This document shows, piece by piece, positions 4,948 to 20,530 of a DNA stretch of 64,000 bases. The stretch comes from an uncultured delta proteobacterium (GTDB taxonomy: Bacteria; Desulfobacterota; Binatia; UBA9968). Position numbers and translations under genes: made by a program. How positions within the stretch are numbered: position 1 is the stretch's first letter; every line of letters begins with the position of its first letter. The DNA lies in contig CAWDPO010000042.1 of the NCBI GenBank assembly GCA_963804165.1, positions 85,219 to 149,218 of the forward strand. The letters run 5' to 3'. The notes below the pieces were generated by a model that worked only from the letters and a program-made list of their open reading frames with translations, was not told the origin of the DNA and did not search any database.

Positions 4948-5024
4948 GGCGGTGTAGCTCAGTTGGTCAGAGCACGCGGCTCATATCCGCGGCGTCGACA
5001 GTTCGAATCCGTCCACCGCCACCA
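4948..5024 (+). tRNA. tRNA-Met(CAT), probably elongator; 3' half supplied by the integrated element
   Basis: GGCGGTG acceptor stem, CGCGG-CTCATAT-CCGCG anticodon arm, TTCGAAT T-loop and encoded CCA; G1-C72 pair and no GGG/CCC anticodon stem, so not an initiator. Confidence 0.93.
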
Positions 5025-5027
5025 ATT
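4978..5027 (+). repeat. attL core (direct repeat with 20481-20530)
   Basis: 47/50 identical to 20481-20530 by manual alignment. Confidence 0.93.
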
Positions 5028-5090
5028 CTTCTCTCGGTAAGATCACGAATTCCATAGGTACTTTGCTGTGTTGCTAGCATCCTAGCCAAC

Positions 5091-6380
5091 TCAGCCATTT
5101 TTGCTTGAATGCTGTTTTGTACACTTTTTTGCCCCCAAGTTGGACGTTTTCAGACTTGCCCCCAAAGAAATTTTAGGCGACTCCCCAAGCCTGAGACCGC
5201 TATCTTTCATGCGCTCCTGCATCGCGCGCAGATACTTTGTTGTCGTCGTCAAGTTCGTGTGTCTCATCAAGCTCATCAGCACGCGCGGGTCATCTGGTCT
5301 GAACCGTGCTAGCGAAGTAATCGCGCATGTCCTTCGGTCGCAGCTTCACGCTCGGCTGAATATTGCTCGATCCACAGGCAAAGCAACCAATGCCTTCGTC
5401 GACGTTGACCGACCTACATTTCGAGCAGCAATGGATGCGCGAGACGGCTTCGATTCGTTTGCAGTCCCGGCAGTGGCGACGCTTGCCGATGTTGCCGCCC
5501 GAACAGTCCGTGCAGCGAGAAGTAAGCCGCTCGATCTTCTCGAACAGGCGCCGGCGCGAATAGATTTTTTTCCCTTGGTCTGAGCCGATCGGCCGGCAAA
5601 GACATAATCAGACATGCTCCCAGCCTTGTGCTTTTTGAGACTTTCAATCAATGCCGGCGCCAACGGAAGGTATGCGTCGGACTCGTCAGTCTTCGTGCCG
5701 CGGCAATGAAAATAACCTTCATCGAAGTTAATATCTTCCCATCGGAGCCGGTTCGCTTCGTCCTTCCGTAATCCGCTGAAACGTAGAAAATCAAAGTAAG
5801 CTCTATCGGCCGGATTCTCGATGCTCTCTGCCGCTCTTTCCACTGCGGGTAGATTTAGCGGCGCCTTCTTCGGTTTCGTGCTGCCGATGATGCTTGTATC
5901 GAGTGCATCAACAGGATTTTTCACGAGCAGGTTTTTTTCAATCGCCCAATTGAGCAGCGCCCGAAGGTTTGTCACGTCATGCCACACCGTTTTCGGCTTA
6001 ACGTTTCGCTCTCGCTGTATCACGAGCTTTTGGACCTGATCTGACGTAATGGATCCGATCGGCGTTGCCGCACCGAAGAACGGAATGATGATCTTGTCGA
6101 AGTTCCATCTCATGCCGTCGATTCGCCACCCGGAACGGCCTTTTTCTGCGGATTCCACGAGGTACGCGCTGACCACGGTTATCAGTGCCGTTGGCGGTAA
6201 CTCCGGCGTCTTGGGTCTGCTCGCCACCTCTGTCTTGAGCTCAATGAGTGCCGCCTTCGCCTCTTCCCGCGTTGCCCAGACGTAGCGCTTGTAAGTGCGC
6301 CCTTGTAGGCAAACCCTGTAACCCCAGCGGTCCCGCTCCGCCCGATACTCGATTCCGTTTCTCTTTTTTCTCTTTGCCAT
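5091..6380 (-). CDS. int: Tyrosine integrase, frameshifted at ~5570, ~5292 and possibly ~5200, with a four-CxxC insertion
   Basis: FSGLRKDEANRLRWEDI (box I R), GTKT (K), then in shifted frames KDMRDYFAS and LMRHTNLTTTTKY (H, Y). Confidence 0.9.
5130..5164 (+). promoter_or_regulatory. Putative integrase arm-type sites, left arm (TGCCCCCA x2)
   Basis: TGCCCCCA at 5130-5137 and 5157-5164; the same octamer occurs twice just inside attR. Confidence 0.7.
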
Positions 6381-6555
6381 CGTTCCCCCGCTGGTAGTGA
6401 ACGCGTAGATTTATATATGTGTCTACGTCCTCTTGTCGATAACGCCTAACGCCCTTTCCGGCGCCTACTCTTACGAACGGTATCCCGAGAGTTGCAACGG
6501 TTCGCTTTTTTACTTGCAGCTGCGCCGCGACTTGTCTGTCCGTGAGAAGGATCAA
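6241..6555 (-). CDS. Excisionase/Xis-like HTH protein
   Basis: LLTDRQVAAQLQVKKRTV...IPFVRVG...VRRYRQEDVD pattern, directly upstream of int. Confidence 0.75.
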   Translation of the reverse strand: MILLTDRQVAAQLQVKKRTVATLGIPFVRVGAGKGVRRYRQEDVDTYINLRVHYQRGNDGKEKKEKRNRVSGGAGPLGLQGLPTRAHLQALRLGNAGRGEGGTH

Positions 6556-6727
6556 CGCCCGCCTCCTTTGCGACGAACGAAATCAACAGCTCCATCGGCG
6601 GCGTGACGATCATCTCGCCCCGCTCCATGCGCGCAACCGAATTGCGGGTCATTCTTACCTTGGCCGCAAATTCGTGCTGCGTAACCCCCAATGCACGGCG
6701 AATGTCGCCTAGCTGTTTGCCGGTCAT
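6446..6727 (-). CDS. XRE-family HTH regulator
   Basis: LGDIRRALGVTQHEFAAKVRMTRNSVARMERGE. Confidence 0.88.
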   Translation of the reverse strand: MTGKQLGDIRRALGVTQHEFAAKVRMTRNSVARMERGEMIVTPPMELLISFVAKEAGVDPSHGQTSRGAAASKKANRCNSRDTVRKSRRRKGR

Positions 6728-6736
6728 GATACATAA

Positions 6737-6765
6737 CGTATACTGCTTTTGTGTAACCCTGTCAA
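6737..6765 (-). promoter_or_regulatory. sigma70 promoter for the XRE-xis-int operon (near-leaderless)
   Basis: TTGACA-N17-TATACG, with the ATG 9 nt after the -10 box and no RBS. Confidence 0.7.
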
Positions 6766-6798
6766 TGCTAATGAACGCCCCGGGCCATCAAATGTGGC

Positions 6799-8073
6799 TG
6801 TAGTAGCAACGTGATTATGACAGGGGCTAACGGCAACGTAATTATGTCAGGGTGGGAGGATGACAACCCTGACGATGCAAGACGAGAAGCGACTAGACGT
6901 AATACAACGAGTGAATCGAAGCGAGCTGACCGTGGTGCAAGCGGCACTGGTGATGGGACTAAGCGAACGGCAGTGTTACCGGATCAAAGCATGTGTCGGT
7001 AAAGCCGGAGCCAAGGGAATCGTTCACGGTAACCGCGGACGGCCCTGTAAACGCAAGACCAAGGAGAAGACGGTTAGACGTGTCTTGGAATTAGCCCGAG
7101 GTAAATACCAAGGCTTCAACGACCATCATCTGACCGAGAAGCTCAAAGAACAAGAACAGATCGAGCTCAGCCGTGAGAAAGTCCGCCGTATCCTTCGTGC
7201 CCACGGGATCGGCTCCCCCAAGAAGCGTCGCGGGATTAAGCACCGAAGCCGCAGAGAAAGACGGGCCAGTGAGGGGATGATGCTCCTGCCACGAGCAAAG
7301 TCATGGGAGCCTTTTTTGCCCCGGCCGAGAGTTCCTGGGGTTACTTCCATCTGTTCTCCGAGATCTTCAAGCAGCATGGAGTATCCCAGTCGATCTATAC
7401 GGACTGTCACTCGGTATTCTGGACCGATCGGGAACCGACGTTAGAGGAGCAGTTGATCAACAGAAAACCCACCACCGAAGTCGGTCGAGGCTTGGAAGAG
7501 CTCGGGGTGACCTTGATCCTAGCCCATTCCCCTCAGGCCAAGGGGAGAATCGAGAGACTGTGGAACACTTTCCAGGACCGGCTGGTCAGTGAGCTGCGGT
7601 TGGCCAGGGCCAAGAGCGTGCAACAGGCAACCGTGGTCCTGGATCGTTATCTCCCCGTGCATAACCGTAAGTTTGCTAAGCCCGCTAAAGCACAGCCGGC
7701 CTGGAGAAAAGTCAGTGCTCTTAAGATCGAACGAGATTTGTGTTTCAAACAACAGCGCACAGTGGCTAAGGACAACACGGTAACTTTCGAACGGACGGTT
7801 TTGCAGATCCCAAGACCTCGCCCTTTCGTTCTCACGCCAACAAAAGAGTCGAGGTCAACGTGATGTTGGACGGTGCGGTGGAGATTTTCTACAAGACTGA
7901 GAAAATCGCAACCTTCGATTCAAAAACAACGCACGCAATTGGCCTATATCGAACGATCGGAAAAAAGGAGGGGTTCCGCTATGGTCCGCTTTCTAGGCTG
8001 GCCATTCAACCTGAGGTGTCACCCTGACATTTTTACCTTGCTGTTAACATGACATATTGACGTTGCTACGACA
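6799..8073 (+). mobile_element. IS1202-family (ISNCY) insertion sequence with a 16-bp target-site duplication
   Basis: Long imperfect TIRs TGTAGTAGCAACGT.../...ACGTTGCTACGACA; GGCCATCAAATGTGGC duplicated at 6783-6798 and 8074-8089. Confidence 0.9.
6860..8027 (+). pseudogene. DDE transposase pseudogene (internal deletion ~7285, frameshift ~7812)
   Basis: HGNRGRP, YTDCHSVF and HSPQAKGRIERLWNTFQDRL motifs; the QxDGS...IDD segment expected between GMMLL and ATSKV is missing. Confidence 0.85.
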
Positions 8074-8176
8074 GGCCATCAAATGTGGCTTGTTAACATT
8101 CTCACTAGTCCTGTATGCTAAACTTGGTGTATCCAATGGCATAGGCTGCCCAACGGCAACAAAGCCACAGCGAGCA

Positions 8177-8608
8177 ATGGCAGAAGCAGAAGCTCTTGAG
8201 ACCATTCTCGGCTCATTCGTCGTCGGTGGATTCGCCATCGCGGTTGTCTACTTCGCGGTTAGGGTCCGGGCGCGTAGAACCGCCCAGGCGCTCTTTGTCG
8301 ATTCCGTCCACGAGATCTTGTTCGACATATATCCCGAACCGCCTAACTGGCCGAAAAATAGTCGGCAAGTATTGCAAGAGCGCATGCCCGAGATGCAATT
8401 CGCGATCAACCAATTGCGCCCACACCTTCGCAAACGAGAAGTCGCTCGCCTGGACGACGCATGGACCAAATATAAGAACTACTGTCGCCAAATTAACGAT
8501 ACAGAAATAGCTGCTCTCCCTTTTTCTCAATCGACTTCGTCTGTGGATCAAAAAGGGCGATTCAAAGCTCACGTCGATCAACTCCTGTCGTATGCAAAGC
8601 ACATTTAA
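8177..8608 (+). CDS. Hypothetical protein with an N-terminal TM anchor (element cargo)
   Basis: ILGSFVVGGFAIAVVYFAV followed by a helical domain. Confidence 0.65.
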   Translation: MAEAEALETILGSFVVGGFAIAVVYFAVRVRARRTAQALFVDSVHEILFDIYPEPPNWPKNSRQVLQERMPEMQFAINQLRPHLRKREVARLDDAWTKYKNYCRQINDTEIAALPFSQSTSSVDQKGRFKAHVDQLLSYAKHI

Positions 8609-8687
8609 AATTTTCGCGTATTCTTCGTTGCGGATCTGATCGACCAAAAGGTCAAACGGACTCTTGGCCGGCTCGCCCATTTTTTAT

Positions 8688-9092
8688 CTACGCGCCCACG
8701 CCGGCGAACTTCTCGCGAAACGCTTGATAGTCCCTATTGAGCGCCTGTAGCTGGGTGGTCCGCTCGGCAACCTTCCTGTCTAGTTCCTCGATGCGAAGCC
8801 GACGCGCGTCCATGGTCGCGTACTGCTCATATTCTTTTTCCCAAGTTGCGAGTTGGCTTTTCTTTGCTTCGATTTGCGACTCAAGCGCTTTGATTTCGGC
8901 GTTGCGCTTATCCCATGCTTCATTGAGTATTTCGTTGGCTTGCTTCAGCTTTTCATTCTCTTCGGCGCTCGCCTGATATTCGATCGCACTGCGCAGTGTG
9001 CTTGCTTGCCACTCGGCGAATTCCAAAAATTTGGCTAATTCTTTTTGCTTGTCCATCGTCTTGCTTTTCCCTTTCGTGTTTTTGTTACTCAA
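8688..9092 (-). CDS. Coiled-coil hypothetical protein
   Basis: Heptad-rich E/K/Q sequence, start overlapping the upstream stop. Confidence 0.7.
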   Translation of the reverse strand: MSNKNTKGKSKTMDKQKELAKFLEFAEWQASTLRSAIEYQASAEENEKLKQANEILNEAWDKRNAEIKALESQIEAKKSQLATWEKEYEQYATMDARRLRIEELDRKVAERTTQLQALNRDYQAFREKFAGVGA

Positions 9093-9664
9093 ACAGTCTT
9101 TTGTCGCGCGTTGAATTTGGTGTTGATGCTCAATGGCTCCGGCCGTTCTGCAGGCGCGGTGATCGCAACCGGTGCCGCACGTTCACTGATCGCGGCGCAG
9201 TCAGCGAGCGCTTGAATGTAGCCGCCGACCTGGCGCATGTAGCGCCGACAAGTACCCTCCACGTCGCCCGGCGAAAGGAACGCGCCATACTCCCGAATAA
9301 GCGTTGCCCGCTTAACTCGATCAACCTCGTCCACGTAAACCGTTTGCCTGATGTGCTGCCAGCCAAGCTTGCTAAAATGGCTGACCGCGTTGCGGATCTG
9401 GTTTGGCACCTCGAATAACTTTTCGATTTCCCACAGTAGGTGAGAAATTTCCTGATGAGCGATATTGGCCGCCTTTACCTCGGCAACGAAGGGCTTGGCC
9501 TCTTTCTGAAAGAACGCGTCCAAGGCTGTTGCACGTTCGATTCCTTTCGGCGTTATTGCGTCGAGCTCCTTACGAAACTCTTTGACTGCCTCGGCCTTTC
9601 GCTTTTCGATTTCCTCGTCTGTAGGCCCGCCGACTACTTTTAGCTGGTCAGAGAAAGAATTCAT
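9089..9664 (-). CDS. Hypothetical protein of the element
   Basis: 191-aa ORF with a strong AGGAGG RBS. Confidence 0.75.
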   Translation of the reverse strand: MNSFSDQLKVVGGPTDEEIEKRKAEAVKEFRKELDAITPKGIERATALDAFFQKEAKPFVAEVKAANIAHQEISHLLWEIEKLFEVPNQIRNAVSHFSKLGWQHIRQTVYVDEVDRVKRATLIREYGAFLSPGDVEGTCRRYMRQVGGYIQALADCAAISERAAPVAITAPAERPEPLSINTKFNARQKTV

Positions 9665-9677
9665 GAATATCCTCCTT

Positions 9678-10154
9678 TTACTTTTGTGTCGCGAAACGGT
9701 GAATTAATTTGATGATGTCTGGATCATCGAACAAGCCTGGATAACGCTCGTAGAGCGCCTGGCCTTGCTCCATGGGTATGTGCTTCAGTGCAAAACCGTG
9801 AACAACGGCGATATTATCGTCGTACCGATCGGCCCAATCAGATCGGAGCACTCCCTCTGACGCTGCGCGCGCTGCAATGGGATCTTCATGGCTCTGGGCG
9901 TCGAAGTCGCGAGCAGCCGCCGCCATCTGCTGTTCAAGTTGTCCGCCGCCAATCACTTCCTCGCCGGGATATTTCAAATCAAAAAGTGCATCCACCAGCG
10001 CCTTAGCCTCAGCGTCGCCCGCATGAAATTTGTGATGCATCGCATGAGATGAGTCACGGATAATTTTTTCCGCCTCTTTGACGGCGCCCTCGGAAGTCGG
10101 CATTTGTCCCTGAAAGTAGCTGGGCAAATCGATTCGCCCGGTGATTTCGCTCAT
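9678..10154 (-). CDS. Putative capsid scaffold-like protein
   Basis: Acidic helical protein with LRSDWADRYDDN...GLFDDPDIIK and EAEKIIRD...H...LVDALFDLKYP segments recalling podophage scaffolds; GAAAGGA RBS. Confidence 0.45.
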   Translation of the reverse strand: MSEITGRIDLPSYFQGQMPTSEGAVKEAEKIIRDSSHAMHHKFHAGDAEAKALVDALFDLKYPGEEVIGGGQLEQQMAAAARDFDAQSHEDPIAARAASEGVLRSDWADRYDDNIAVVHGFALKHIPMEQGQALYERYPGLFDDPDIIKLIHRFATQK

Positions 10155-10199
10155 AGTGTTTGTTCCTTTCTTCCATGTGTGTTTTTTCCAGATTTTGCT

Positions 10200-10328
10200 G
10201 TCAAACCGTCAAAACGATTTATGAGTTCGACACTTGAGTCGTTTTTTCATGTGTCAAATGGATTCCCCTTTTGACAGATAGAAAAATCACTTCAGTCTTT
10301 ATTCTTATTGCTGTCTTGACGGTTTGAC
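10200..10328. other. Putative replication origin of the element
   Basis: 13-bp inverted repeat GTCAAACCGTCAA (10200-10212)/TTGACGGTTTGAC (10316-10328) enclosing a TGTCAAA/TTTGACA pair and AT-rich DNA at the 3' end of the rep gene. Confidence 0.6.
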
Positions 10329-12357
10329 GGATAAATCTCGATATTATCGGGAAGGTAACGCGCGCGCAGCTCCTTGACCCATTCACGCCCGATGGAATAA
10401 CCCCTACTCTTGCCGTCTTTTGACGGCCTGGGGTATGCCCCAAACTTCTTTAACTGTCCAGCGAGCTTTCGCGTCGAATCGATCCAAGACAGTTCAGCCG
10501 TTACCCTCGCGAGTAGATCCGCCGATAGAACGAATATGGTTTCCTCATCCGGCTTTTCGTTGAGACATGCCTCTAAGACGGTAACGAGTCCGGAAAGCGT
10601 AGAGTCTTCCGACGCGGTGCCCTTCGTGCCGGCCATGTCGCGCAGTAGGTCGCAGAAGCGCTCAGTTACAGCACCGCGTCCGTTGGAAAACTCGCAATCT
10701 GAAAAGATGGCAATTGTTAGCAGCGGTTCAACGATGTCTAAAAATCTATCGTCAAGGTCCTTAAGTCTATCGGTTGTCGCCAAAATATCATCGATGCCGT
10801 CATATAAATCGGCGATTCCCTTCTCGCGTTCGGTTGCCCACAGCCGCAAGTCCGTCCGAAGCTTTTCTAATTCTCTGCCTTGGCGTCGGATCGTAAAACG
10901 TTCGACGGTCTCGCTCGCCGTCTTACGGCTCATCGTGACTAATAGACTACGATCGGCGAGCGTATCGCTAAGGCTGTTGATACCCGCCAACGCCTTAGGA
11001 CAAAACGCATTGAAGTAGATGACTTCAAATCTATCCTCTACTCTTTGGGCTCGCGGCACTTTCGCGCCGCTCTGGAATCCCGCGTTGAGCAGTCCCATGA
11101 CATTGCTAAATTTTTCCCTGTCCTGATTGCGTAGCGATTCAAGCTCATCCAACAGCATCGTCGCGCCGCTATCTGCCAGCCGGAAAATAACGGCTTCGCT
11201 GGCGTTGGATAGGCGCGGCGTGGCTTGTGCGGCAAGTTGGCCGATGATCTCAAGCACAAGGGTTTTCCCGCAGCGCAGTACAGGTGAGTTGAGATGCAAA
11301 TAGCCGAAGTAGGCGAACAAGCGGTGCAAGTAGGTTCCCATCACCCACAGCGCGAGCAATAGCGGATAGCGTTTTTCTCTAAAAAACACGTAGCGGGAAA
11401 AAATAGCTTCGAGCGTATCTATCAAGTCGCGCGTCCGCGGCACTGGTGGGTAAAGTTCGATCGGCGCCGCCGCTGCTATCGCTTGCTCTAGTGCCGCTGT
11501 GAATTGTGCTGCGTCTTTGCACGTCAGCCACAAAGCCCGCGGATCTTTCTCGGGTAGCGAGACCGCCTTAACCGTGCTTCGATACTCGGCGCCCTTTAGC
11601 GCCGCCGTAATGCTCGAAACGAACTGCTCGCCGGCGTTGCCCGGCTCTTGCACAATGACAATTTCAGGGAAGGGTACCAGGCATAGGACCATTTCCGGCT
11701 TGAAGTTCCCGGCGCCCGGTATTCCAAGCGCCGCAATTCCGCAATGGGTTAAAACATGAACATCGCTGGCACCCTCGACGACGACAAGCCGATCTTTAGT
11801 TTCCGGTAACTGCCAAAGGCCGTAGGGTAAAACCTTATCGCCCTTGCGCCACGAGAAGCGCTGATCTTTTTTGTCGCCCTTTCCAGCTTGTGCCGACGCT
11901 GCACTGATATAGTCGCGCCGCTTTCATCCTTGTAGGGAATCTCAATGCCGGCTTCGTCATTGGTGAGTGAAAAGGTCTCGAGTAGAAAATTCTCGGGTAA
12001 CGCGCAAAAGTCAGCATACTCTGCGACCGTCAACGTCTTGGCTTTTCGCCTCGGCTTTTCCTCGCTGGTATCAATCTTGAACTTGCGAGCAAGGTCCTTG
12101 GCTGCATCGACTGGTTCTATGAAAAGCTCACCAGCGAGCAATAGATCGATATTCGATCCACCTTTGTGGCAACCGAAGCACTTCCAGCGATTCGTTTCAG
12201 TGTTGATCTTGAATGATGGCGTTTTCTCGGAGTGAAATGGGCAAATCGTAACGAGATCACGGCCGGAATGATTTAGTTCCAGGTTCGGAAAATACTCTCG
12301 AACGACCGACTCTATGGGAATCGCTCTGATGCGCTCGAATAGATCGCCGTGACTCAT
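10292..12357 (-). CDS. Replication protein: CHC2 zinc finger + TOPRIM + DUF3631, one frameshift at ~11870
   Basis: CPFHSEKTPSF...WKCFGC; VVVEGASD in the shifted frame; SPVLRCGKT, LLDE, LLNAGF and DTLADRS. Confidence 0.85.
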
Positions 12358-12996
12358 GCGTTTTTCAGTTCCGGAAAAACGTCGAAGGCCCGCCCGACCG
12401 CCGCCTCGGATAGCCGACCTTCGCAGAAGGCCATAACCAGTCGTCGCTTAAAATACCGCGCGTTGTGCGGGCTTCGGGCGCTCACCAATGGCGACTGGGA
12501 TCAAATGCTCGATGATCTCTATTTCGCTTTAACCGCTACGAAGCGTGGCGCCGAAAGGAACGACAAATACTCAGCGATCGTTAAAAACAAAATTGCTGTG
12601 TGGGAAGCGCTCGAAGAGCTAAGAAAGAGTATTGAGGCGGATGACGACGACACAACCGAACCGATCTTTCGCCGTAAAATGAACGACGTAACCCTCGTCA
12701 TCCGGCGCCGTGATGATCAAGGCGGCACATTTAATTGGGACGTTGAAAGCGATGACTTCGCTACGCTGATTTTTTTTGAATTTGCCAACTTGTTAAAAAT
12801 ATCCGGTCTGAACATATACGACGTTCACCGCTTCTCAAACGAGACATGCAAAAGACCTTTCATTCCCTTGAGGCAACCGCGCGAGGGCAGTCCCGCGTAC
12901 TGCTCAAACGGATGCGCCAGGATTGTAGCTGCAAGAAATTATAGAGCGAACAAAAAAAAGGCAAAGGCGAAGGCCAAGAAAAAAAAGCGTAAGTAG
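12349..12996 (+). CDS. CGNR-zinc-finger-like protein, 5' end uncertain
   Basis: C-terminal CKRPF...YCSNGCARIVAARNYR with a basic tail; first expected Cys is Phe. Confidence 0.55.
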   Translation: MTHAFFSSGKTSKARPTAASDSRPSQKAITSRRLKYRALCGLRALTNGDWDQMLDDLYFALTATKRGAERNDKYSAIVKNKIAVWEALEELRKSIEADDDDTTEPIFRRKMNDVTLVIRRRDDQGGTFNWDVESDDFATLIFFEFANLLKISGLNIYDVHRFSNETCKRPFIPLRQPREGSPAYCSNGCARIVAARNYRANKKKAKAKAKKKKRK

Positions 12997-13433
12997 AAAC
13001 GAAACGGCCGAGCCCTGCGCTAACAGAGACACCGGCCATGAACGGGGACCACCTTGCGAGCAATCACGCCATTCGTGCGCGTTCCACTAGCTCGTTGCCG
13101 GTGTATGAAAAGCCCCTCTGAACAAGCCACCCTGTACGTTTGATTTTTTCGTTCATCTGCAAGGGTTAATTCGACCGTTCTTGTCCAAAAACAGGGCGTT
13201 AGAGCGCCGTGGTTTCGCGGATTTATCCCGAAATCCCCTTGGCATACCTATTGCGCCCCTAAGGGACAAGGAGAAACCATGTATGGAAAGGATTCTCGAT
13301 TCCAACACTCCTCTTAAATTGCTGAACCGTCTCGCGAACATCGATTGGGCCTTCCACATCTTTGGCTAACCTACTTCAGCATTGTACTTGGTGCCTTCCG
13401 TTACTTTCTTAACGTCTGAATACCATCCGCCCG

Positions 13434-14416
13434 GTGGTGCGATTGAGTAGGAAGAAATCGGCGGAAAAGATTTCGTTCATCGAACCGATGTACGCACTCG
13501 CCGTGCGGCCTTTGCCCGAAGGCGATTGGCTCTACGAAATCAAACTCGACGGTTATCGCTGTCTTGCTGGCCGTGACGCTGACGGCGTAAAGCTCTGGTC
13601 GCGGCGCGGCAACGAATTAACTTCTCAATTCCCTACAATTGCCAACGCCTTTAAAAAACTTCCGTCCGGTACGCTCATCGATGGTGAGATCGTTGCGATG
13701 GATGCGAACCGCCAGATCTCCTTTAACCTGCTCCAGCACCATCGTTCACAGGCTTCGGCAATATGGTTTTTTTGCTTTGATGTTCTAATTCGATCCGGAA
13801 AAAGCATTCTTCAGCTGCCACTCATAAAGCGACGCGATTCCCTTGACGACATGTTACGGCAGGTGCGCAAGGATTCCTACGCTGTCGATGTTTCACAAAT
13901 CCTTGTCGCTGGTCCTTCAGAGATTATCCGTACGGTTAGCGAGTTCGGGCTTGAAGGAATCATTGCCAAGCGGCCGAATTCAATCTATGAGCCAGGACGG
14001 CGCAGCGGCGCATGGCTCAAGTACAAGATCAAACAGGGTCAGGAGTTCTCGTGATCGGCGGCTACACACCCGGCAATCCGTTCGATGCCGTCATCGTCGG
14101 ATATTACCAGGACGGTAAGTTATTCTACGCGGGAAAAGTTCGTGCCGGCTTTGTGCCGCACGTCAGGCGCGAGATTATGGCGAAGATGAAAGCGTTAAGA
14201 ATCGACGCTTGCCCGTTTGCCAATCTACCGGAGAAAAAGCTCACGCACTGGGCGCTCACCAGAAAAGAGATGAAAAACCGCGTCTGGCTCGAGCCGAAAC
14301 TCGTCGCCCAAATAGAGTTCACCGAATGGACTCCAGACGGCCACCTCCAGCACGCGAGTTTCAGCGGGTTACGAACCGATAGGGACCCGCAGGAAGTTGC
14401 TTGGGAGCTCGGTTAA
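13434..14416 (+). CDS. ligD: ATP-dependent DNA ligase (LigD ligase + OB domains), frameshift at ~14050
   Basis: EIKLDGYR (motif I), DGEIV, FDVL, EGIIAK, YEPGRRSGAWLK, EF/VIGGY and WTPDGHLQH. Confidence 0.88.
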
Positions 14417-14721
14417 GCGGAAAACGACGCATGCGACGACGCACCCGCGGGCGTGAGCTTGCAATCGTCATCAGTAGCCAATTTCGACAATTTAACCTGA
14501 TCCGTTCAAGCAGCGGCGTTTTGCAGGCGTATTTGCCGTTAAGTCCAGGAGCATTACGCTCTCACGCGTCGGTTTATTTCCTCGCTAGTTCCCAGATACT
14601 CTTTTCAAAATCACGGTACGGCGGTTGCTCAAAGTCCCCCTGCCGGTGACGGGAACCGCAACTTGATTTTACAACCTCGTCAATCTCGTACCTCGGCGCA
14701 ATTAATACAGCCACGCTCTTT

Positions 14722-14814
14722 ATGCTTTACGACCTTCTCCTAGCCGCCATAATCCTGGTACTGGCAATGCTTGTGCCTAAGCAGCCGCAGCGATGGAACC
14801 TAGTCCTGTGCTGA
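14722..14814 (+). CDS. MLYD membrane micropeptide, copy 1 (30 aa)
   Basis: MLYDLLLAAIILVLAMLVPKQPQRWNLVLC; N-terminus similar to copies 2 and 3. Confidence 0.45.
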   Translation: MLYDLLLAAIILVLAMLVPKQPQRWNLVLC

Positions 14815-15245
14815 TGCAGATAATTCGATATTTGATTACGGCGGCGCAGGCTGTCCTAGCCGTGTCGGTGATTATTGCGGGCGTCTCATCCGAAAATCAT
14901 GCAGTCGGTCTGGTCTTAGCTTTTGTGGGAGCAATTCTTGTTTTCCATTTGCTTATGAAGACTCCCGTGAAAGGAACGTTCCTCTGTCCGCGTTGCTCTA
15001 CGCGAATCAAACGCGGCACGGCTAAATGCCCTCACTGCAGCGCCCGTCTTGTCCTCCGACCGAAGGCAACATTCTATCACCGCGGCGCCAGAGAGATCCT
15101 GGCCGACGCGATCAATCATCCACGCGACCACAGTATCCGCGAGCGTGACTTGAATAGCACTGAGATTGTGATAACCGAACGGCACCATGCTTTACGACAT
15201 CCTCGTTGCCGTCCTGATCCTCATACCAACAGTGTTCGTGTATAG
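14793..15245 (+). CDS. Two-TM membrane protein with a zinc ribbon
   Basis: Two TM segments, then CPRC...CPHC. Confidence 0.65.
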   Translation: MEPSPVLMQIIRYLITAAQAVLAVSVIIAGVSSENHAVGLVLAFVGAILVFHLLMKTPVKGTFLCPRCSTRIKRGTAKCPHCSARLVLRPKATFYHRGAREILADAINHPRDHSIRERDLNSTEIVITERHHALRHPRCRPDPHTNSVRV

Positions 15246-15268
15246 ATGGACATGTCGCGCTGACATGC
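15143..15268 (+). repeat. ~125-bp diverged direct repeat (partner 16105-16228)
   Basis: Shared ACGGCACCATGCTTTAYGACATCCTCGTTGCCGTC...AGTGTTCGTGTATAGATGGAC plus upstream similarity. Confidence 0.85.
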
Positions 15269-15384
15269 CGAAGAAAATCGAGAGAGCCGGAAGCCGAAAA
15301 GAAGAACACTCTTTCGCAGCTGTCTCAGTGACCAATCAGGTAAAGACCACGCCTGCCAAGTTGGAGCAAGAGCACGCGTTCTAA
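15187..15384 (+). CDS. MLYD membrane micropeptide, copy 2 (extended to 65 aa by a 2-nt indel)
   Basis: MLYDILVAVLILIPTVFVYRWT... Confidence 0.55.
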   Translation: MLYDILVAVLILIPTVFVYRWTCRADMPKKIERAGSRKEEHSFAAVSVTNQVKTTPAKLEQEHAF

Positions 15385-15794
15385 GCTTTACGCGGTGTGA
15401 ACTCCCAACGCGCCGGCATTCTCGCTAGCTCCGCATTCAATCGGTCGATCTCTGCCTTAATCTTTTCATCTTTGGTGCGAAGGTATCGACTGCCAAGCCG
15501 GCCTAGGCGCTGATCGATCGCGTAGCGGACGGCGGCATGAATGCCGGCAAAGTTAACGCGAAGGTTTTGCTGTTGCCCTTCGCCCTGCTCGCCACCGAGG
15601 CTGAAAGGTTGCGGCGTGCGATCGAGGTGATGTCGGAATGCTTTCGCGTGCCCTTGCGTATCGATGTAGCGCTCGACCGCGTCTAGTGCCTCGTGAACCT
15701 CGGGCGTATCGATGCGGTGCTCTTTGCAATTGAGTGTTGCGTCCTCCAGTATTTTGAGGGCTTCAAGGACTCGCACACGACCATTTAGACCCAA
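15381..15794 (-). CDS. Hypothetical protein
   Basis: 137-aa ORF with protein-like composition; start uncertain. Confidence 0.55.
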   Translation of the reverse strand: MGLNGRVRVLEALKILEDATLNCKEHRIDTPEVHEALDAVERYIDTQGHAKAFRHHLDRTPQPFSLGGEQGEGQQQNLRVNFAGIHAAVRYAIDQRLGRLGSRYLRTKDEKIKAEIDRLNAELARMPARWEFTPRKA

Positions 15795-15929
15795 AGGCCG
15801 TGATACTGAAAATATATTCAGGTGTCAATCGGAGAAACTAATGGAAAATTCTGTTTTAAGGTTGACAGGCGTGTCCGTAATTGACCTATATTAACCTTGG
15901 TTTCCTACCTACATTTTAGGGGGCGCACC

Positions 15930-16100
15930 ATGGTCAAAGATACGCAATTGACGGAGCTCCAATCCGTTAATGAGAAGATGGCTCAACTCTCAAGACAGAT
16001 TCTAACCGAGCCATACAGCCCAAAGCGTGAAGAACAAGTAAGAGAACTCGGCCGACTTAAAGAGCAGGCAAGGCAACTACGAAACGAACAGCTGAACTGA
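15930..16100 (+). CDS. Small helical hypothetical protein
   Basis: AGGGGG RBS; amphipathic 56-aa ORF. Confidence 0.55.
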   Translation: MVKDTQLTELQSVNEKMAQLSRQILTEPYSPKREEQVRELGRLKEQARQLRNEQLN

Positions 16101-16104
16101 ACGC

Positions 16105-16228
16105 GCGTGGCTTGAACAGCGCTGATGTCGGTGATAACTGCACGGCACCATGCTTTATGACATCCTCGTTGCCGTCGTAGTTCTTGTACCAGTAGTGTTC
16201 GTGTATAGATGGACGCGGCGCTAACGCC
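16105..16228 (+). repeat. ~125-bp diverged direct repeat (partner 15143-15268)
   Basis: Manual alignment with 15143-15268. Confidence 0.85.
16150..16224 (+). CDS. MLYD membrane micropeptide, copy 3 (24 aa)
   Basis: MLYDILVAVVVLVPVVFVYRWTRR*; differences from copy 2 are mostly synonymous or conservative. Confidence 0.6.
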   Translation: MLYDILVAVVVLVPVVFVYRWTRR

Positions 16229-16272
16229 CATTAGCTTGCAATCAAACCCTCTGGGCGATAAAGGCAAGCGTC

Positions 16273-16446
16273 ATGCCCTACCCGCTCCGATTCTACCTGT
16301 ATCTCTTCGTCGCTAACGTCGCGGTGTTCCTCGCTGCTAAATGGCTTTCTCCGTACGGCCTCGGCTCCAATCCGGCGTTGTCCTTAGGTGCGGCCTATGT
16401 CGTCATTCTCATTCGCCGGCGGGTGCTCGGACGAAAGAATTTGTAA
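16273..16446 (+). CDS. Small two-TM membrane protein (57 aa, below the ORF-track cutoff)
   Basis: MPYPLRFYLYLFVANVAVFLAAKWLSPYGLGSNPALSLGAAYVVILIRRRVLGRKNL. Confidence 0.55.
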   Translation: MPYPLRFYLYLFVANVAVFLAAKWLSPYGLGSNPALSLGAAYVVILIRRRVLGRKNL

Positions 16447-16580
16447 TGACATGCAATCGAGCACAGCCGCGGGCGTGAAAGAACGAGGCTGCACCGCAAG
16501 GTCGGCCCCGTTTCTATTCTTTGCATGACGGTATAATGGGTTGTTGTTTGGCTCTCTAGCCTGAGCTAGACCTTATTCGG

Positions 16581-16739
16581 ATGAGGCGCAACCGGCATAG
16601 TTCCAAGCCGCGCCGCTGGAAGCGTAGCCACGCATTCACCACCCGTCATCGATGGAACCTCCGGCTAATCCGGCTAATCATAACCGTTGGTATCATTGCA
16701 CTACTGCTACTGCACCTACTGCGCATTATTTTCTTTTGA
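16581..16739 (+). CDS. Small Arg-rich protein with a C-terminal TM (52 aa)
   Basis: MRRNRHSSKPRRWKR...LIITVGIIALLLLHLLRIIFF; TATAAT ~45 nt upstream. Confidence 0.45.
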   Translation: MRRNRHSSKPRRWKRSHAFTTRHRWNLRLIRLIITVGIIALLLLHLLRIIFF

Positions 16740-16994
16740 GCCCGCACCTCTCCCGGCATGCCTGCGTAACCCGACCAGCTGCCTCGGGTTAGTCTCTGCG
16801 ATTTTAAGCACACGGCTGCGGTAATATCGCGGATCTAGCCCAAGAGTGGCGCACACCCATTTGTAGCTGCCAACGTCTGCCGACATTGATTCAAACCACG
16901 CGCGGGCGTTGCGTTGTCTGGAGTCGCGCGTAACGCCGGCAACGTCCGTAGTTGCCTCAATCAAAACGCCGAGCCAAAGCGCTTTTTCTTCCAT
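16716..16994 (-). CDS. Phage-type small hypothetical protein
   Basis: LWLGVLIEA...ARAWF...SYKWVCATLGLDP, a pattern I recall from prophage proteins. Confidence 0.65.
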   Translation of the reverse strand: MEEKALWLGVLIEATTDVAGVTRDSRQRNARAWFESMSADVGSYKWVCATLGLDPRYYRSRVLKIAETNPRQLVGLRRHAGRGAGSKENNAQ

Positions 16995-17123
16995 AGACAA
17001 TTTGTCGCTTTTCCGACAAGTGCCGGCCTTGTTGACAAGGGCGCCCTAAGTAAATAGTTTCGCGCCGCTGTGAAGCTCCGCAATCACCCTGGAATAAGCA
17101 CCTAGCCGCCGAGCTGGCTTGCA

Positions 17124-17369
17124 ATGTCGGGAGCGCACGAGAAAAGGTCGCCCGGTGAATCCGCCGTCCTCACGCACGTTGCTCTCTCCAAAATTGACCC
17201 GATAACGATTTGTTATCTAACCGTGCAATTTGAGAATGAGGAATACTTGGGAACTCTGCTCTGCAAAGGTCCCGAACTTTGTCGCACTGTGTACCAAATC
17301 CTGCAAAACCATATTGGAAAACCGATGAATGAGATTGGCGATTTCGACTTGCCCTACCCATCAACATAA
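17124..17369 (+). CDS. Hypothetical protein
   Basis: 81-aa ORF; TTGACA-N17-TAGTTT upstream. Confidence 0.55.
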   Translation: MSGAHEKRSPGESAVLTHVALSKIDPITICYLTVQFENEEYLGTLLCKGPELCRTVYQILQNHIGKPMNEIGDFDLPYPST

Positions 17370-17406
17370 GAGCTCTTCAAGTCAGGGCTCAGAAAGTAAA
17401 GGTTTT

Positions 17407-17625
17407 ATGCCAAAGCGCACGACAAAGCAGCCGCATATGTATTCATTTAGCGTTCAATTTGAAGGCAAGAAATACGAAGCGAGCTACTCTATACAGTCTG
17501 GCGTCGTCACTGTTACTTCCGATTACGGCTCTCAATCAACTCATGCTGGCGGAAAAGCCGATTTAACTGCGCGCATGTTGCTCCGCGAAATCCTGGAGGG
17601 TGCGAAAGCTCGCGGTAAACTTTAA
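17407..17625 (+). CDS. Hypothetical protein
   Basis: 72-aa ORF with an AAAGG RBS. Confidence 0.55.
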   Translation: MPKRTTKQPHMYSFSVQFEGKKYEASYSIQSGVVTVTSDYGSQSTHAGGKADLTARMLLREILEGAKARGKL

Positions 17626-19743
17626 TTTGAATATGATGTAATCCTTGGCCGTCATGAGCTGCGAAAATACGGTTTCTATAAAATCCTTTGCTTTGGAGTC
17701 CATGAGTTACCCACATGTTGTATTCGCCGCACCTCAAAGTGTCTGTTGATCGTGAGTGGCGGCCCCCCGGTGGCGGCCCTCCCGGGTCGATTCGATCGAC
17801 GCAAAGACTGAACGCGCGCGCCACATAGGACCACAGCGTGCGCTTATCCCGTCTTTCATCTTCGTACGACCATCGCCCGCTTAGGGCTTCTACGAGTAAA
17901 CGCGCATTGCTCCTATCTATCTGAAGCGCCGGCTTCATTGTGAATGGCTGCGCCTTCCCGAAGACGTCAAGCATCGAATCTTTCCGAGTCTCCCACGGGT
18001 GACAAGCCGGGTCCCAGCTACCGCCGAGGCTGCTGTTAAGCATCCCGGCGAAGTCGCTTTGTGCTTGAGTCTCTAATTCCTCAACGACACCGAAGAGTAG
18101 CCGGCGGTCGTTAAATACCCATGGGCAATTAGCCACAAGAAACGGTTTTACGATTGTCTCAACGTGGCGCCGTAAGCTCATCTGCTCGTTCGCGAATGCC
18201 GCAAGAACAGTAATCGCGCCGTCGTCACTTTGAGCAATGACGGTTGCCGGCACTTCAAACGTTTGGCCGATGTAGACGGGTCCGCGAAAAGGCTCGATCG
18301 CTTCCGTTGGAACGTGCTGCGACAAATTGAATCCACGAGCTGCACGGCTACCGATCTCGCCGCGATGGGCCATGGCTGCAACGCTCGCCATTGCCAGCGC
18401 GACGATGGCGTCAATCTTCTTGCTGGCCTTCTCTTTGGCGATTCTCCAGCCGCGGGGGTTCTCAACGGCTACCGTTGAAAGCGCTTGCTGTCTCAAATCG
18501 TCCGCCGGGTAGATCTCGAGGTTTAGCCCGGTGAGTAGATCGAAAAGGGTTTGCCCCATGAGCGTGCAGTTGGTTTGTGTCTGGGAAAACTCACGGATAG
18601 GCACGCCGGCGGCCTGTAGCGTGGTGATCGATCGGTGCATCTGGTACGGATCGGCGAGTATTTCCACAAATCGCTACGCTCGTTAAGGTCGCGCAAGTCC
18701 TGTTCGACGGTGTCCTCAAGGTCAAGCGGCTGTGTCGGCGTAGGTTTCCAAATCTTGTGAGACACGAGAATCAAGCGCTCGCCGGCTTCGTCCCACTTGA
18801 GAGCTACGCGCGCGGCATTGTCGTGCTTGATACCGACGTCGACGCCAACAAATAACGGCTCGCGGTCGGTGATGCTCGGTCGATGCAGTTGATTGACGCA
18901 CGGGTCACACATTTCAGGCGTGATGAATGTTTCTTCAGCCACCGCCCATTGGTTACGGTGCAAGCGCAGATAGGTGCCTGGCCTGAGTGTCTTTTTCTGG
19001 CTGTCGTAGTACGCCTGCGTTTGCCACTTCATGCGCGGTTCGTGGTCCCAGTAGGCAAACAACCGCGCCTCACGGTTACAGTAGATCGGCAAATCAGGGT
19101 GAAGCTTTTCGCCTTGGCCTTCGGGGTGCTCGTCCTTGCTCACGACTTGTTTGTACAGGTCCCAAAGCAAAGCCGATTCGCCTTCAAAGCCGGCATAGGT
19201 GGTAACCAGCCGGATCGAATTACGCCGGGTAGGCACGGGCGTCAACTCTTCCCAAAGCCGGATGCTCGACTCGCTCGTATAGCCCCAAAGCTCGTCATAG
19301 CTCACAAGTCCATGGTTAGAGCCCGCGGCGCCGGCATAGTCACCGCTGATCGCCGTTGCTGTGGTTCCGTTGGCAAGAAATATAGTCTTGCTCTGCACCT
19401 CGGCTTCCCGCTGCAGCTCGGGGTTGTGCTTGATGATGCCTTCCATGGTCTTGAACACACGCGCGAGGGTTTGCTCAAGGTCGTTGGCGAGTATCAGGAT
19501 TTCATTCGGCGCCTCTTGTGTGAATCCCCAGGCAAGCGTTAACGCGCCGTTCAGCGTGGTCTTGCCGCTCTTCTTGATGCAGCTGTAGATGATCGTGTCC
19601 CACGGCAAGCGGCCGTCCTGATCGAAGTCAAAGGCAAGGCGTAAGATTTCCCGCTGCTCGTCTATCAACGCGAACGGTTCTCCCAGCTCGTTTTTCTTAA
19701 CGACTCTGTCAATGAAGGTGATAGGGGAAACGATGTTGCTCAC
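17513..19743 (-). CDS. terL: Terminase large subunit with a C-terminal extension (frameshift ~18665; 3' end uncertain)
   Basis: Walker A IKKSGKTT, Walker B VSYDELW, and nuclease motifs VGVDVG...D, ADPYQM and KIDAIVALAMA. Confidence 0.88.
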
Positions 19744-19967
19744 ACTTGATCCAACAGCACGTGAAACTGAATAATGCCGACTTGATCGAGCATCGCCCTG
19801 GCGCGTCTCAGCGCATAGCCATCCATGCGGCAGTGATCAGAGCAGAACTTCTTACCGCTCTTCGCTTCTGTTGGAGCTTTGCAAAACGGATTGTCACACG
19901 GTTTAAAGCCGTGCTGCTCCGCCGTTAACGGCTCACTGGCGCACGATTGCATGATCTGTAGTGTCAT
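19740..19967 (-). CDS. Small zinc-finger protein between terS and terL
   Basis: CDNPFC...KKFCSDHCR. Confidence 0.7.
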   Translation of the reverse strand: MTLQIMQSCASEPLTAEQHGFKPCDNPFCKAPTEAKSGKKFCSDHCRMDGYALRRARAMLDQVGIIQFHVLLDQV

Positions 19968-20400
19968 TGCCCCCGCTGGTTGCTTCCGGCTGGTTTAGGA
20001 GGTCTGCAAGTGAAGTCGTTTTGACACGGCGTTGAAGGCCAAGGGCCTGAAGATTCCCGCGCATGTGACTCGAAAGCTTAACCCACGTATCGACTACGGA
20101 AATAACTTTGTTGTCGCGCACGATCTTGCCGTCTATCGACATCAGGTAGTTTTCAACGGTGCCTTTGAACAGCATTGTGTTGACGGTGTCGGTAATGAGC
20201 GTTCTTTCCTGGGAGCTTGGATCCCCGCCAAGCGCGCTAATCAATTCCTGCTCTTTTTCTCTGAGCACTTTGGCGAGAGACATGCGACCGTCAAGCTTTC
20301 CACCCAACATTCGGCGGTAAACATGCAGCGAATGTTTGACGGCGTGTGTATTGCCCTTAGCAACGGGTTTGACCGGCTTATCGCCCTTTTTGAACGGCAT
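19933..20400 (-). CDS. Putative terminase small subunit
   Basis: MPFKKG...KGNTHAVKH N-terminus and LQALGLQRRVK C-terminus; lies upstream of terL. Confidence 0.7.
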   Translation of the reverse strand: MPFKKGDKPVKPVAKGNTHAVKHSLHVYRRMLGGKLDGRMSLAKVLREKEQELISALGGDPSSQERTLITDTVNTMLFKGTVENYLMSIDGKIVRDNKVISVVDTWVKLSSHMRGNLQALGLQRRVKTTSLADLLNQPEATSGGNDTTDHAIVRQ

Positions 20401-20413
20401 TTTGCCTCTTACT

Positions 20414-20434
20414 TGCCCCCAAGACATGCCCCCA
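20414..20434 (+). promoter_or_regulatory. Putative integrase arm-type sites, right arm (TGCCCCCA x2)
   Basis: TGCCCCCA at 20414-20421 and 20427-20434. Confidence 0.7.
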
Positions 20435-20438
20435 GAAT

Positions 20439-20483
20439 AAAAAAGCCATGAAGATCAACAACTTTCGTCGCTGTCATCATGGC
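20439..20483 (-). terminator. Intrinsic terminator abutting attR
   Basis: GCCATGA...CAGCGAC-GAAA-GTTGTTG...TCATGGC hairpin followed by T6 on the minus strand. Confidence 0.7.
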
Positions 20484-20530
20484 TCATATCCGCGGCGTCG
20501 AGAGTTCGAATCTCTCCACCGCCACCAATT
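20481..20530 (+). repeat. attR core: displaced 3' half of tRNA-Met
   Basis: Anticodon loop through CCA, with a perfect GAGAG/CTCTC T-stem and no 5' half. Confidence 0.93.

Follow-up and report, generated by a model that had tools for sequence, protein, structure and literature searches.

Can a mobile element that has no gene for a phage particle still carry the motor that fills one? The question is raised by a 64-kb window (64,000 nucleotides (nt), positions 85,219 to 149,218 of contig CAWDPO010000042.1, assembly GCA_963804165.1) from an uncultured delta proteobacterium of the Binatia. An integrative element in this window combines integration and replication genes with a gene for the large terminase subunit (TerL) and a gene in the position of the small subunit (TerS). 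As the defining passages of the literature present them, described capsid-less satellite families borrow the packaging motor of the helper phage, and only the phage-inducible chromosomal islands of the capsid-forming kind (cfPICIs) bring a TerL of their own. On balance, we favor the reading that the window holds the degenerate copy of an integrative element that targets tRNA genes and replicates itself, belongs to a large family with terminases and no capsid, and, when intact, would be packaged into procapsids of a helper. The class-level idea of the original prediction, a satellite type with its own packaging motor, is supported; the completeness of the window copy is not. Coordinates are positions in the window, C-numbers denote contigs of its own genome (G000), and G- and L-numbers denote the genomes and loci compared.

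Terminase-bearing elements without detected head genes

The element is bounded by 50-nt direct repeats spaced by 15,503 nt, giving a length of 15.5 kb. The left attachment site, attL (4978-5027), consists of the last 47 nt of a tRNA-Met gene and three further nucleotides, and attR is identical to it at 47 of 50 positions. The element had been described as complete and att-bounded; the boundaries hold, but the integrase, terL and ligase genes are broken and an insertion sequence (IS) has entered. The predicted size of about 14.2 kb without the IS is borne out by the mapping of the IS to 6798-8074. On the minus strand, from attR inward, the order is a 164-aa protein, a 75-aa protein with four cysteines, TerL, mixed small genes, a CHC2 primase, a DUF3631 protein, four genes without assigned function, the IS, an XRE-type regulator, and the integrase (Table 1).

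No head gene was detected in this set. Four open reading frames (ORFs) of the element reach 250 aa (344, 466, 384, and 406 aa), and all are accounted for by the integrase, the DUF3631 protein and the two pieces of TerL, whereas the longest ORF without assignment has at most 219 aa. Head, tail and lysis families had no match among the element ORFs scanned against Pfam, PHROGs, NCBIfam, and PADLOC, in agreement with the earlier statement that no portal or capsid ORF is visible. The portal and capsid families PF04860 and PF05065 had no match in the element's own genome, which is 81% complete.

The same layout is found in related genomes. The TerL query matched 10 of 61 genomes including the window's own, all of them in its family (f1) and none in the other two families; within the genus, 8 of 30 genomes carry it. 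The order of the TerS-position, zinc-finger and terL genes recurs on G003:C32, G018:C13 and G018:C26, and the latter two genes are adjacent on G018:C6; a ligase gene lies near terL on G003:C32 and G018:C26. The G003:C32 element is 12.7 kb long, is bounded by 52-nt repeats (50/52 identical) at tRNA-Arg(CCT), and encodes the TerS-position protein, the zinc finger, a TerL of 689 aa, a ligase, a 608-aa PrimPol-AAA_25 primase, HTH_17 proteins and an integrase in fragments; no head gene was found. An intact Illumina-derived element, seen three times (L076, L162, L163), spans 16.5 kb between 103-nt repeats at tRNA-Leu and contains a TerS-position gene, a TerL of 690 aa, a response regulator, a 360-aa protein without assignment, a 687-aa primase, an HTH_17 protein and a 338-aa integrase. 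The gene set recurs, and the close relatives are not full prophages; neither of the two outcomes that the original prediction named as refuting it is therefore observed. Among five genomes of the family (G003, G018, G024, and G030 from the window's genus and G031 from a sister genus), PF04860 matched none and PF05065 matched one, where the contig carries no TerL. In L162 (2363-5335) and L163, a 2.9-kb remnant with a 131-aa TerL fragment directly adjoins the intact 16.5-kb element and lies between two att copies, a case of tandem occupation of tRNA-Leu.

Beyond the genus, at least 873 TerL homologues were collected, and 16 of the best 120 have 660-700 aa. A scan of species-representative genomes yielded 76 TerL loci in metagenome-assembled genomes (MAGs), assigned by their record titles to Binatia, Acidobacteriota, Nitrospira, Planctomycetota, Alphaproteobacteria, Acidimicrobiaceae and others, and a metagenome scan gave 517 confirmed TerL stretches. 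An IMG/VR search with a single TerL protein found nothing, whereas an alignment-based scan did find matches. All ORFs of at least 80 aa from 118 loci were clustered. Forty loci, including 39 of the 76 genomic ones, have a member of a tyrosine integrase cluster (cluster 1) no more than 8.5 kb from TerL, and four loci have a member of a serine recombinase cluster; primase clusters occur upstream of TerL, and three clusters of TerS-position proteins directly precede it.

Genuine phages with a related TerL look different. In 23 IMG/VR loci whose TerL is 36-41% identical, an ORF of 598-872 aa from one portal cluster (median 623 aa, with a weak PHROG portal match) directly follows TerL, and L034, with a TerL of 48% identity, has a clear portal (phrog_113, E 3e-78). 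Hidden Markov models (HMMs) of this portal cluster, of its downstream neighbor and of a second portal-size cluster had no match among the ORFs of the genomic loci or in the six-frame translation of the window's genome. When 40 genomes with TerL loci (one of them, G090, unpublished) were surveyed for portal and capsid genes, PF04860 was present in 4 and PF05065 in 7, but on the TerL contig only in the Acidobacteriota MAG G085. Here an HK97-type portal gene and two capsid genes (C18:447608-462654) are situated 21-36 kb (the portal 24 kb) from the TerL island at 483651-485021, on the opposite strand, and may belong to a resident prophage able to serve as a helper.

The phylogenetic tree of 90 TerLs (FastTree), with portal labels from our own clusters and 15 rows whose flanks are too short to judge, places the window's kin in a clade of 14 rows (support 95) adjacent to a clade of 36 rows (support 98). 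Neither contains a portal-linked member; the portal-linked phages fall outside both, with L034 at the base. In summary, the family keeps a TerS-position protein and TerL, in this lineage together with a small zinc finger, and forms a compact group that combines terminase genes with genes for integration and replication, while portal, capsid, tail and lysis genes were not detected. Three phage loci from IMG/VR (L059, L036, L054) are peculiar in that, beyond the portal and one further gene, from about 4-5 kb downstream of TerL onward, translation table 11 gives no more long ORFs on the plus strand, which may mean another genetic code or a different strand organization. In L033 (9861-12443), which has a TerL of 64% identity and no portal, the gene after TerL encodes 860 aa with tape-measure-like matches.

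A large terminase with a second nuclease fold

Both pieces of the window's TerL gene match the tailed-phage terminase family phrog_9, the upstream ORF at profile positions 189-518 (E 4.2e-22) and the downstream one at 568-687 (E 6.4e-11), whereas the Pfam match is weak and does not reach the cut-off (E 0.0096). In the translations, stretches with the Walker A, Walker B and nuclease motifs are readable, and in 20 sequences G59-K60-T61, D364 and D444 are invariant and D301 nearly so. The predicted TerL is confirmed in that an ATPase and an RNase H-like nuclease with its acidic residues are encoded, in a gene interrupted by a 1-nt deletion. Intact orthologues have 689-707 aa, and the relatives G024:C410 and G003:C32 have open frames of 691 and 707 aa; therefore, the two window ORFs represent one gene with a C-terminal extension, and the intact protein would have about 690 aa. 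TerL lacks internal stops in 45 of 46 matches in the 40 surveyed genomes. Its ratio of nonsynonymous to synonymous substitution rates (dN/dS), compared between the window, G003, L076, L158 and L159, is 0.06-0.21 with the extension included, with dS saturated in most pairs; TerL is under purifying selection.

The extension itself folds like a nuclease. The AlphaFold2 (AF2) model of residues 465-689 of the G003 TerL has a mean predicted local distance difference test score (pLDDT) of 79, exceeding 90 over residues 20-150, and its best Foldseek matches are the TerL nuclease domains of D6E (1e-5), SPP1 G2P, G20c, RB49, P22, and Sf6, followed by RuvC-type resolvases. Among 1.84 billion representative sequences the extension has 193 matches, many in proteins shorter than 200 aa. 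About a dozen are proteins of 500-565 aa that align at their C-terminal nuclease part with 27-40% identity, and a Walker A motif is present in 6 of the 11 checked. These TerLs keep three acidic positions (xGxD[GFY]G, YDPS/DPxG, and HPxxDxGD), where the extension has GQ(V/T)F, a non-conserved stretch and HVANA, respectively. Because it aligns to this nuclease domain and lacks the three acidic positions, the extension is a dead copy of a nuclease domain from a different TerL lineage. The ATPase and nuclease, and likewise the fold of the extension, resemble those of tailed-phage TerLs (phrog_9; nuclease domains of D6E, SPP1 G2P, G20c, P22, and Sf6). Unlike in those proteins, two nuclease-fold domains stand in tandem, the second from another lineage and devoid of acidic catalytic positions. 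Such a chimeric TerL with an inactivated second domain is new here: no described TerL of this build is known to us, with no search aimed at it.

The lineage that contains the nearest full-length relatives of the extension is itself found in true phages. It has 364 confirmed stretches in IMG/VR, and 10 of 13 tested loci (L250-L262) match the extension directly (E 1e-11 to 1e-26). An ORF of 552-563 aa follows TerL in all eight mapped loci of this lineage, and the one tested is a portal (PDB 8ck0, E 5.9e-35). Within the window's genus, the profile of the lineage matches only the extension itself. A distant full-length member is present in G033, from the same family, in a true head module whose portal matches PDB 8jov (E 2e-27) and whose capsid protein matches PDB 8h89 (E 3e-40). 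The TerL of this G033 phage was considered as a direct donor of the extension and rejected, since the two show no significant pairwise similarity. An hhalign comparison of the extension with a first, badly cut nuclease alignment gave nothing and was superseded by the structure and the later alignment.

Two small genes precede terL. The gene for the TerS-position protein is always found directly upstream of the zinc-finger and terL genes in the related loci (tblastn), and the protein has 32 homologues, none of them named or with a Pfam domain. Judging by size and position, it would be the small terminase subunit; of the earlier assignment as TerS, the conserved location stands, while the identity finds no support from families or folds. 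In particular, its profile matched only an engineered protein among PDB sequences, and its AF2 model is poor (pLDDT 62) and returned nothing below E 2 in Foldseek. The predicted zinc finger is corroborated by the 75-aa four-cysteine protein, conserved beside terL (tblastn) on C4, G003:C32, G018:C13, G018:C26, and G018:C6, with a further member at L158 (cluster 34), and without a Pfam, PHROG or NCBIfam match.

Known satellites, proposed helper packaging and alternative explanations

In SatelliteFinder, as the relevant passages of its description put it, a PICI carries TerS, typically without any other phage-like structural gene, and takes TerL from the helper (PMC10085698), whereas a cfPICI is defined by TerL together with capsid and connector genes (PMC10085698; bioRxiv 10.1101/2022.09.08.507074). 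These passages agree with the background given in the original prediction, namely that PICIs lack TerL and cfPICIs pair it with capsid genes. Like the PICIs described there (SaPIs, EcCICFT073), the present elements have 10-17 kb, an integrase, a regulator next to it, their own primase or replicase with a candidate origin, a gene in the position of the small terminase, and no virion or lysis genes. Unlike in PICIs as described there, which steal the TerL of the helper, a full TerL is a core gene, the regulator by the integrase is of the XRE type (HTH_3) rather than AlpA, MerR or Stl, and no capsid-morphogenesis gene was found. Related elements do carry HTH_17 proteins (G003:C32, L076/L162/L163). 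Of the features by which PICIs are recognized, the window element has an integrase at one end, and its CHC2 primase finger and DUF3631 protein may amount to a primase-replicase module. It has no AlpA, MerR or Stl regulator and does not show TerS without other structural genes, as the TerS candidate is unsupported and TerL is present.

With cfPICIs, the only satellite family with its own TerL plus TerS in the descriptions at hand, the elements share TerL and, judging by gene position, perhaps TerS. The capsid, protease, portal-side adaptor and connector genes that cfPICIs are described to have were, in contrast, not found here with Pfam and PHROG, and no ORF above 219 aa is left without assignment. 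P4-like satellites resemble the elements in tRNA integration, an own primase and reliance on a helper for all virion proteins. Unlike the elements considered here, P4 has no terminase; it relies on that of the helper, acting at a cos site common to both, and its own products include Sid, Psu and Delta. Among ten element proteins, no PHROG match to Sid, Psu, Delta or an alpha-type primase was observed.

PICMI, VEIMEs, tycheposons, and EPIPs are, in the parts of their descriptions that list genes, likewise small integrative hitchers with an integrase and a replication gene, some with TerS (PMC10803314; PMC9618062; 10.1101/2020.12.28.424599; PMC12822802). The hallmark genes given for tycheposons include a ligase (10.1101/2020.12.28.424599), and EPIPs are described as carrying TerS and a tape-measure protein (PMC12822802), comparable to the gene after TerL in L033. 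Those parts of the descriptions of VEIMEs (PMC9618062), tycheposons (10.1101/2020.12.28.424599) and EPIPs (PMC12822802) name a small terminase, a major capsid protein, a tape-measure protein or "motor-like ATPases", not a capsid-less pair of TerS and TerL. A tailed prophage (Caudoviricetes) would have portal, HK97 capsid, tail and lysis genes beside the terminase; none are observed here, whereas true phage relatives have the portal directly after TerL. Full-text searches found no publication on capsid-less elements with TerS and TerL, with supplementary gene tables, which might list TerL-bearing variants, outside their scope; a review of hitchers mentions terminases in general terms only. The family is apparently undescribed.

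A plausible mechanism for intact members begins when a helper phage infects the cell or is induced. The element would then excise by means of its own integrase and replicate from its own origin with its own primase and helicase. Its own terminase would cut the element DNA and pump it into procapsids made by the helper, and the particles would gain helper tails. We infer the packaging step from the gene content, and likewise the role of the dead extension, which would dock the foreign motor onto the helper portal. In lambda, T3/T7, and P22, TerL binds the portal through its C-terminal end. More tentatively, the elements possibly form an old and widespread class of satellites in soil bacteria of many phyla that brings a whole terminase and steals empty procapsids and tails. 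In the present lineage, TerL would have captured and inactivated a nuclease domain of the helper type for use as a portal adaptor, and the sequence of this domain would point to phages with an L254-like portal of 552-563 aa as the helper lineage.

Several points weigh against helper packaging. The absence of head genes rests on two Pfam families, three home-made HMMs and PHROG scans, so that an unusual capsid gene could be missed; the PHROG scan of 149 neighboring ORFs covered, among the matches listed, 25 of 128 families, and single head-gene matches could escape it. Neighboring genes can also be hidden by the breaks between MAG contigs, which are short. No helper phage was identified, the L254-type portal being present in none of 61 relatives with that query. 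Five DNA runs from three public studies, which share small parts of the element in contigs of 100-283 nt, contained no packaged, excised or circular form, and the attP junction search proposed earlier found no att junction in these contigs; no RNA run was among those listed. Decay is common: the reading frames of the window copy are disrupted at four or more places, copies elsewhere in the genus are often fragmentary, and G018 has 19 TerL matches that are mostly partial. The TerL tree was built by FastTree without bootstrap, the TerS-position protein lacks Pfam, PHROG, NCBIfam, PDB and fold support, and portal docking by the extension is purely inferential.

One alternative retains integration and changes the purpose of the terminase. 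The elements could be integrative islands that spread by other means and use the enzyme to interfere with phage packaging, by competing for phage DNA or cutting it, or to resolve their own concatemers. Satellites and islands often carry interference functions, a GHKL-type ATPase (L087) and a response regulator (L076) are examples of the cargo of related elements, the fold of the extension is RNase H/RuvC-like and Foldseek lists Holliday-junction resolvases for it too, and the helper searches, by PF04860/PF05065 in the own genome and by the L254 portal in 61 relatives, came back empty. However, an ATPase-plus-nuclease TerL behind a conserved TerS-position gene is the packaging arrangement of tailed phages, and PADLOC found no known defence family among the ten window proteins scanned. 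Moreover, known satellites may interfere with phages and still transfer themselves. We regard this explanation as unlikely.

Another possibility concerns the window copy only. Its frame disruptions could be sequencing errors of a long-read MAG, in which case this copy would be intact and active. Same-genus genomes with fragmentary genes do belong, by their titles, to one long-read MAG series, an A7 run marks one of the integrase breaks, and the Illumina-derived element of L076, L162 and L163 is intact. Other features speak against such errors. Near 18665, terL lacks 1 nt compared with three relatives, which read '...D(V/L)(V/M)E(I/C)LADPYQ' in one frame, and near 14047 the ligase gene has a 2-nt insertion ('TC') compared with in-frame paralogues on C23 and C3; neither site is a homopolymer. 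A programmed frameshift in terL was considered and dropped, since the frame is simply open in the relatives. Real, too, is the insertion of the IS, as it is flanked by a 17-nt duplication (6783-6799 and 8074-8090), and Logan contigs end at 6798 and 8073, that is, at its borders. Real decay is favored over assembly error because there are four disruptions in the 14 kb of the element versus about one candidate split gene in the window's 43 kb of host genes, and we hold the error explanation to be quite improbable; no contig of the public runs was reported at the break sites. With a broken integrase, terL and ligase and an inserted IS, the window copy is probably stranded. The host candidate is a pair of overlapping same-strand ORFs of 154 and 196 aa at 43079-44051, which look like one gene split by a frameshift.

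Decay also invites the explanation that the elements are deletion remnants, former full prophages that lost head, tail and lysis modules and retained the terminase as a functionless leftover. Consistent with it are the condition of the window copy, the mostly partial G018 matches, and a second, more decayed copy on C4 beside tRNA-Ser(GGA), which comprises the TerS-position and zinc-finger genes, terL minus 830 nt, and integrase fragments. Yet intact relatives show the same compact att-bounded layout without head genes, TerL has open frames and a low dN/dS, and the 14-row and 36-row clades have no portal-linked member. Nor would independent deletions repeatedly leave integrase, replication, TerS-position and TerL genes in 10-17 kb, and we consider this explanation very doubtful. 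Least tenable is a complete minimal virus of unrecognized type, with a novel capsid and portal among the 4-10 ORFs per element that have no detectable family and with the limited PHROG coverage in its favor, since no such window ORF exceeds 219 aa and since conservation between related elements, expected of a capsid module, is lacking for these genes. To our knowledge, moreover, every known virus that uses a TerL encodes a capsid protein of the HK97 fold and a portal, with 300 aa or more.

If packaging of the elements by their own terminase is true, a satellite with a motor and no shell would need only a compatible portal from its helper, and its helper range could widen. Such elements would be missed, or taken for defective prophages, by satellite finders in which TerL marks a phage or cfPICI. 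With 76 loci in species-representative genomes and 517 metagenome stretches, the elements are common in soil MAGs, and they may move genes in phyla without known mobile-element biology. A TerL built in tandem, whose foreign nuclease domain is dead and under purifying selection, also provides a testable handle on terminase-portal recognition.

Other genes and sites of the element

Table 1. Features of the element and its borders (window positions; a dot stands for no strand)
Feature	Position	Strand	Remarks
tRNA-Met (CAT)	4948-5024	+	ARAGORN; sole tRNA of the window
Tyrosine integrase, broken	5091-6380	-	PF00589 on main ORF 5346-6380, E 6.8e-9
TTGCCCCCA(A), two exact repeats next to attL	5129-5164	+	Candidate integrase arm-type sites, together with 20413-20434
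XRE-type helix-turn-helix regulator	6446-6727	-	HTH_3 E 6.2e-8; HTH_31 E 5.2e-7
Inserted IS with flanking duplications	6783-8090	+	Transposase ORFs 6860-7444 and 7303-7863
Four small genes, function unassigned	8213-10154	-	155, 134, 191, 158 aa; middle pair overlap by 4 nt
GTCAAA/TTGAC repeat cluster, direct and inverted	10187-10341	.	At 3' end of rep gene; candidate origin or operator
DUF3631 protein, 466 aa	10292-11692	-	PF12307 E 6.7e-6, 26.8 bits (cut-off 24)
CHC2 zinc-finger (DnaG-type) primase protein, 202 aa	11749-12357	-	PF01807 E 1.1e-19; N-terminal part of TIGR01391 E 3.4e-20
ATP-dependent DNA ligase, split	13434-14416	+	Two ORFs; PF01068 E 2.1e-34, PF04679 E 8.7e-22
Variable cargo: small membrane-protein genes and further ORFs without assignment	14722-17625	.	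Many with paralogues elsewhere in the genome
TerL with second C-terminal nuclease-like domain, broken	17513-19743	-	ORF A 18523-19743, ORF B 17513-18667; homology stops near 17740
Four-Cys zinc-finger protein, 75 aa	19740-19967	-	Between TerS-position gene and terL
TerS-position protein, 164 aa	19933-20427	-	Named by size and position
attR, copy of tRNA-Met 3' end	20481-20530	+	Direct repeat of attL

Most of the integration and replication genes named in the original prediction were recovered by the profile searches (Table 1): the tyrosine integrase, split over three frames, the XRE regulator, the primase and DUF3631 replication genes, and the origin-like array, which corresponds to the GTCAAA-type repeat cluster. 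Two items did not hold up, as no excisionase gene was found in the element and the "scaffold-like" protein (8688-9092 or 9089-9664) has weak coiled-coil matches only.

The integrase match to PF00589 covers profile positions 22-108 of 172, and Xer-like integrase matches in NCBIfam fall below the cut-off. The main ORF is credible to about residue 265, near the A7 run at about 5575-5581; on the minus strand the protein resumes in the frame 5290-5607 with a Cys-rich insert ('LRPKDMRDYFAS') and then in the frame 5091-5345 with the tyrosine-bearing 'LMRHTNLTTTTKYLR'. The middle frame has several CxxC pairs before an 'RDYFAS' box and resembles a zinc-ribbon insertion in a tyrosine recombinase. The nonamer TTGCCCCCA has three exact copies in the window (5129, 5156, and 20413), each within 150 nt of the att ends, and a copy with one mismatch at 20426. 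This distribution at both ends fits candidate arm-type integrase sites that would have flanked the former attP. The IS proper (6798-8074) has inverted ends (6798-6854 and 8020-8074) and transposase ORFs of the helix-turn-helix type, and a copy of 94% identity is present on contig C8.

Of the eight TGTCAAA copies in the window, three lie within 10199-10276, in the repeat cluster next to the DUF3631 gene, whose product is presumed, from its domain match, to be a replication helicase-like protein. The four small genes that follow had no significant match in Pfam, PHROG, NCBIfam or PADLOC, and tblastn against the related elements examined was empty, with none of them common to these elements; the 134-aa product is coiled-coil-like.

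The ligase and cargo genes have a history of their own. No Pfam, PADLOC or NCBIfam match was found for the cargo at 14722-17625. Copies of the ligase and small genes of 13137-17627 that are 69-91% identical occur at other sites of the genome with no terminase adjoining (C23:243.5-246.5 kb, C3:68-70 kb, C46:409.6-410.3 kb, and C4:83.1-83.8 kb); this block moves or recombines independently of the packaging module. Not only islands but also a phage of this TerL lineage have a ligase: in the true phage L034, an 872-aa protein (10859-13477) matches both an ATP-dependent ligase (phrog_114) and a head-maturation protease. Within the cargo, three paralogous small membrane-protein genes begin with 'MLYD(I/L)L(V/L)A...' (14722-14775, 15187-15240, and 16150-16203) and are 70-72% identical over 54 nt, two of these starts falling inside a longer 91-nt repeat.

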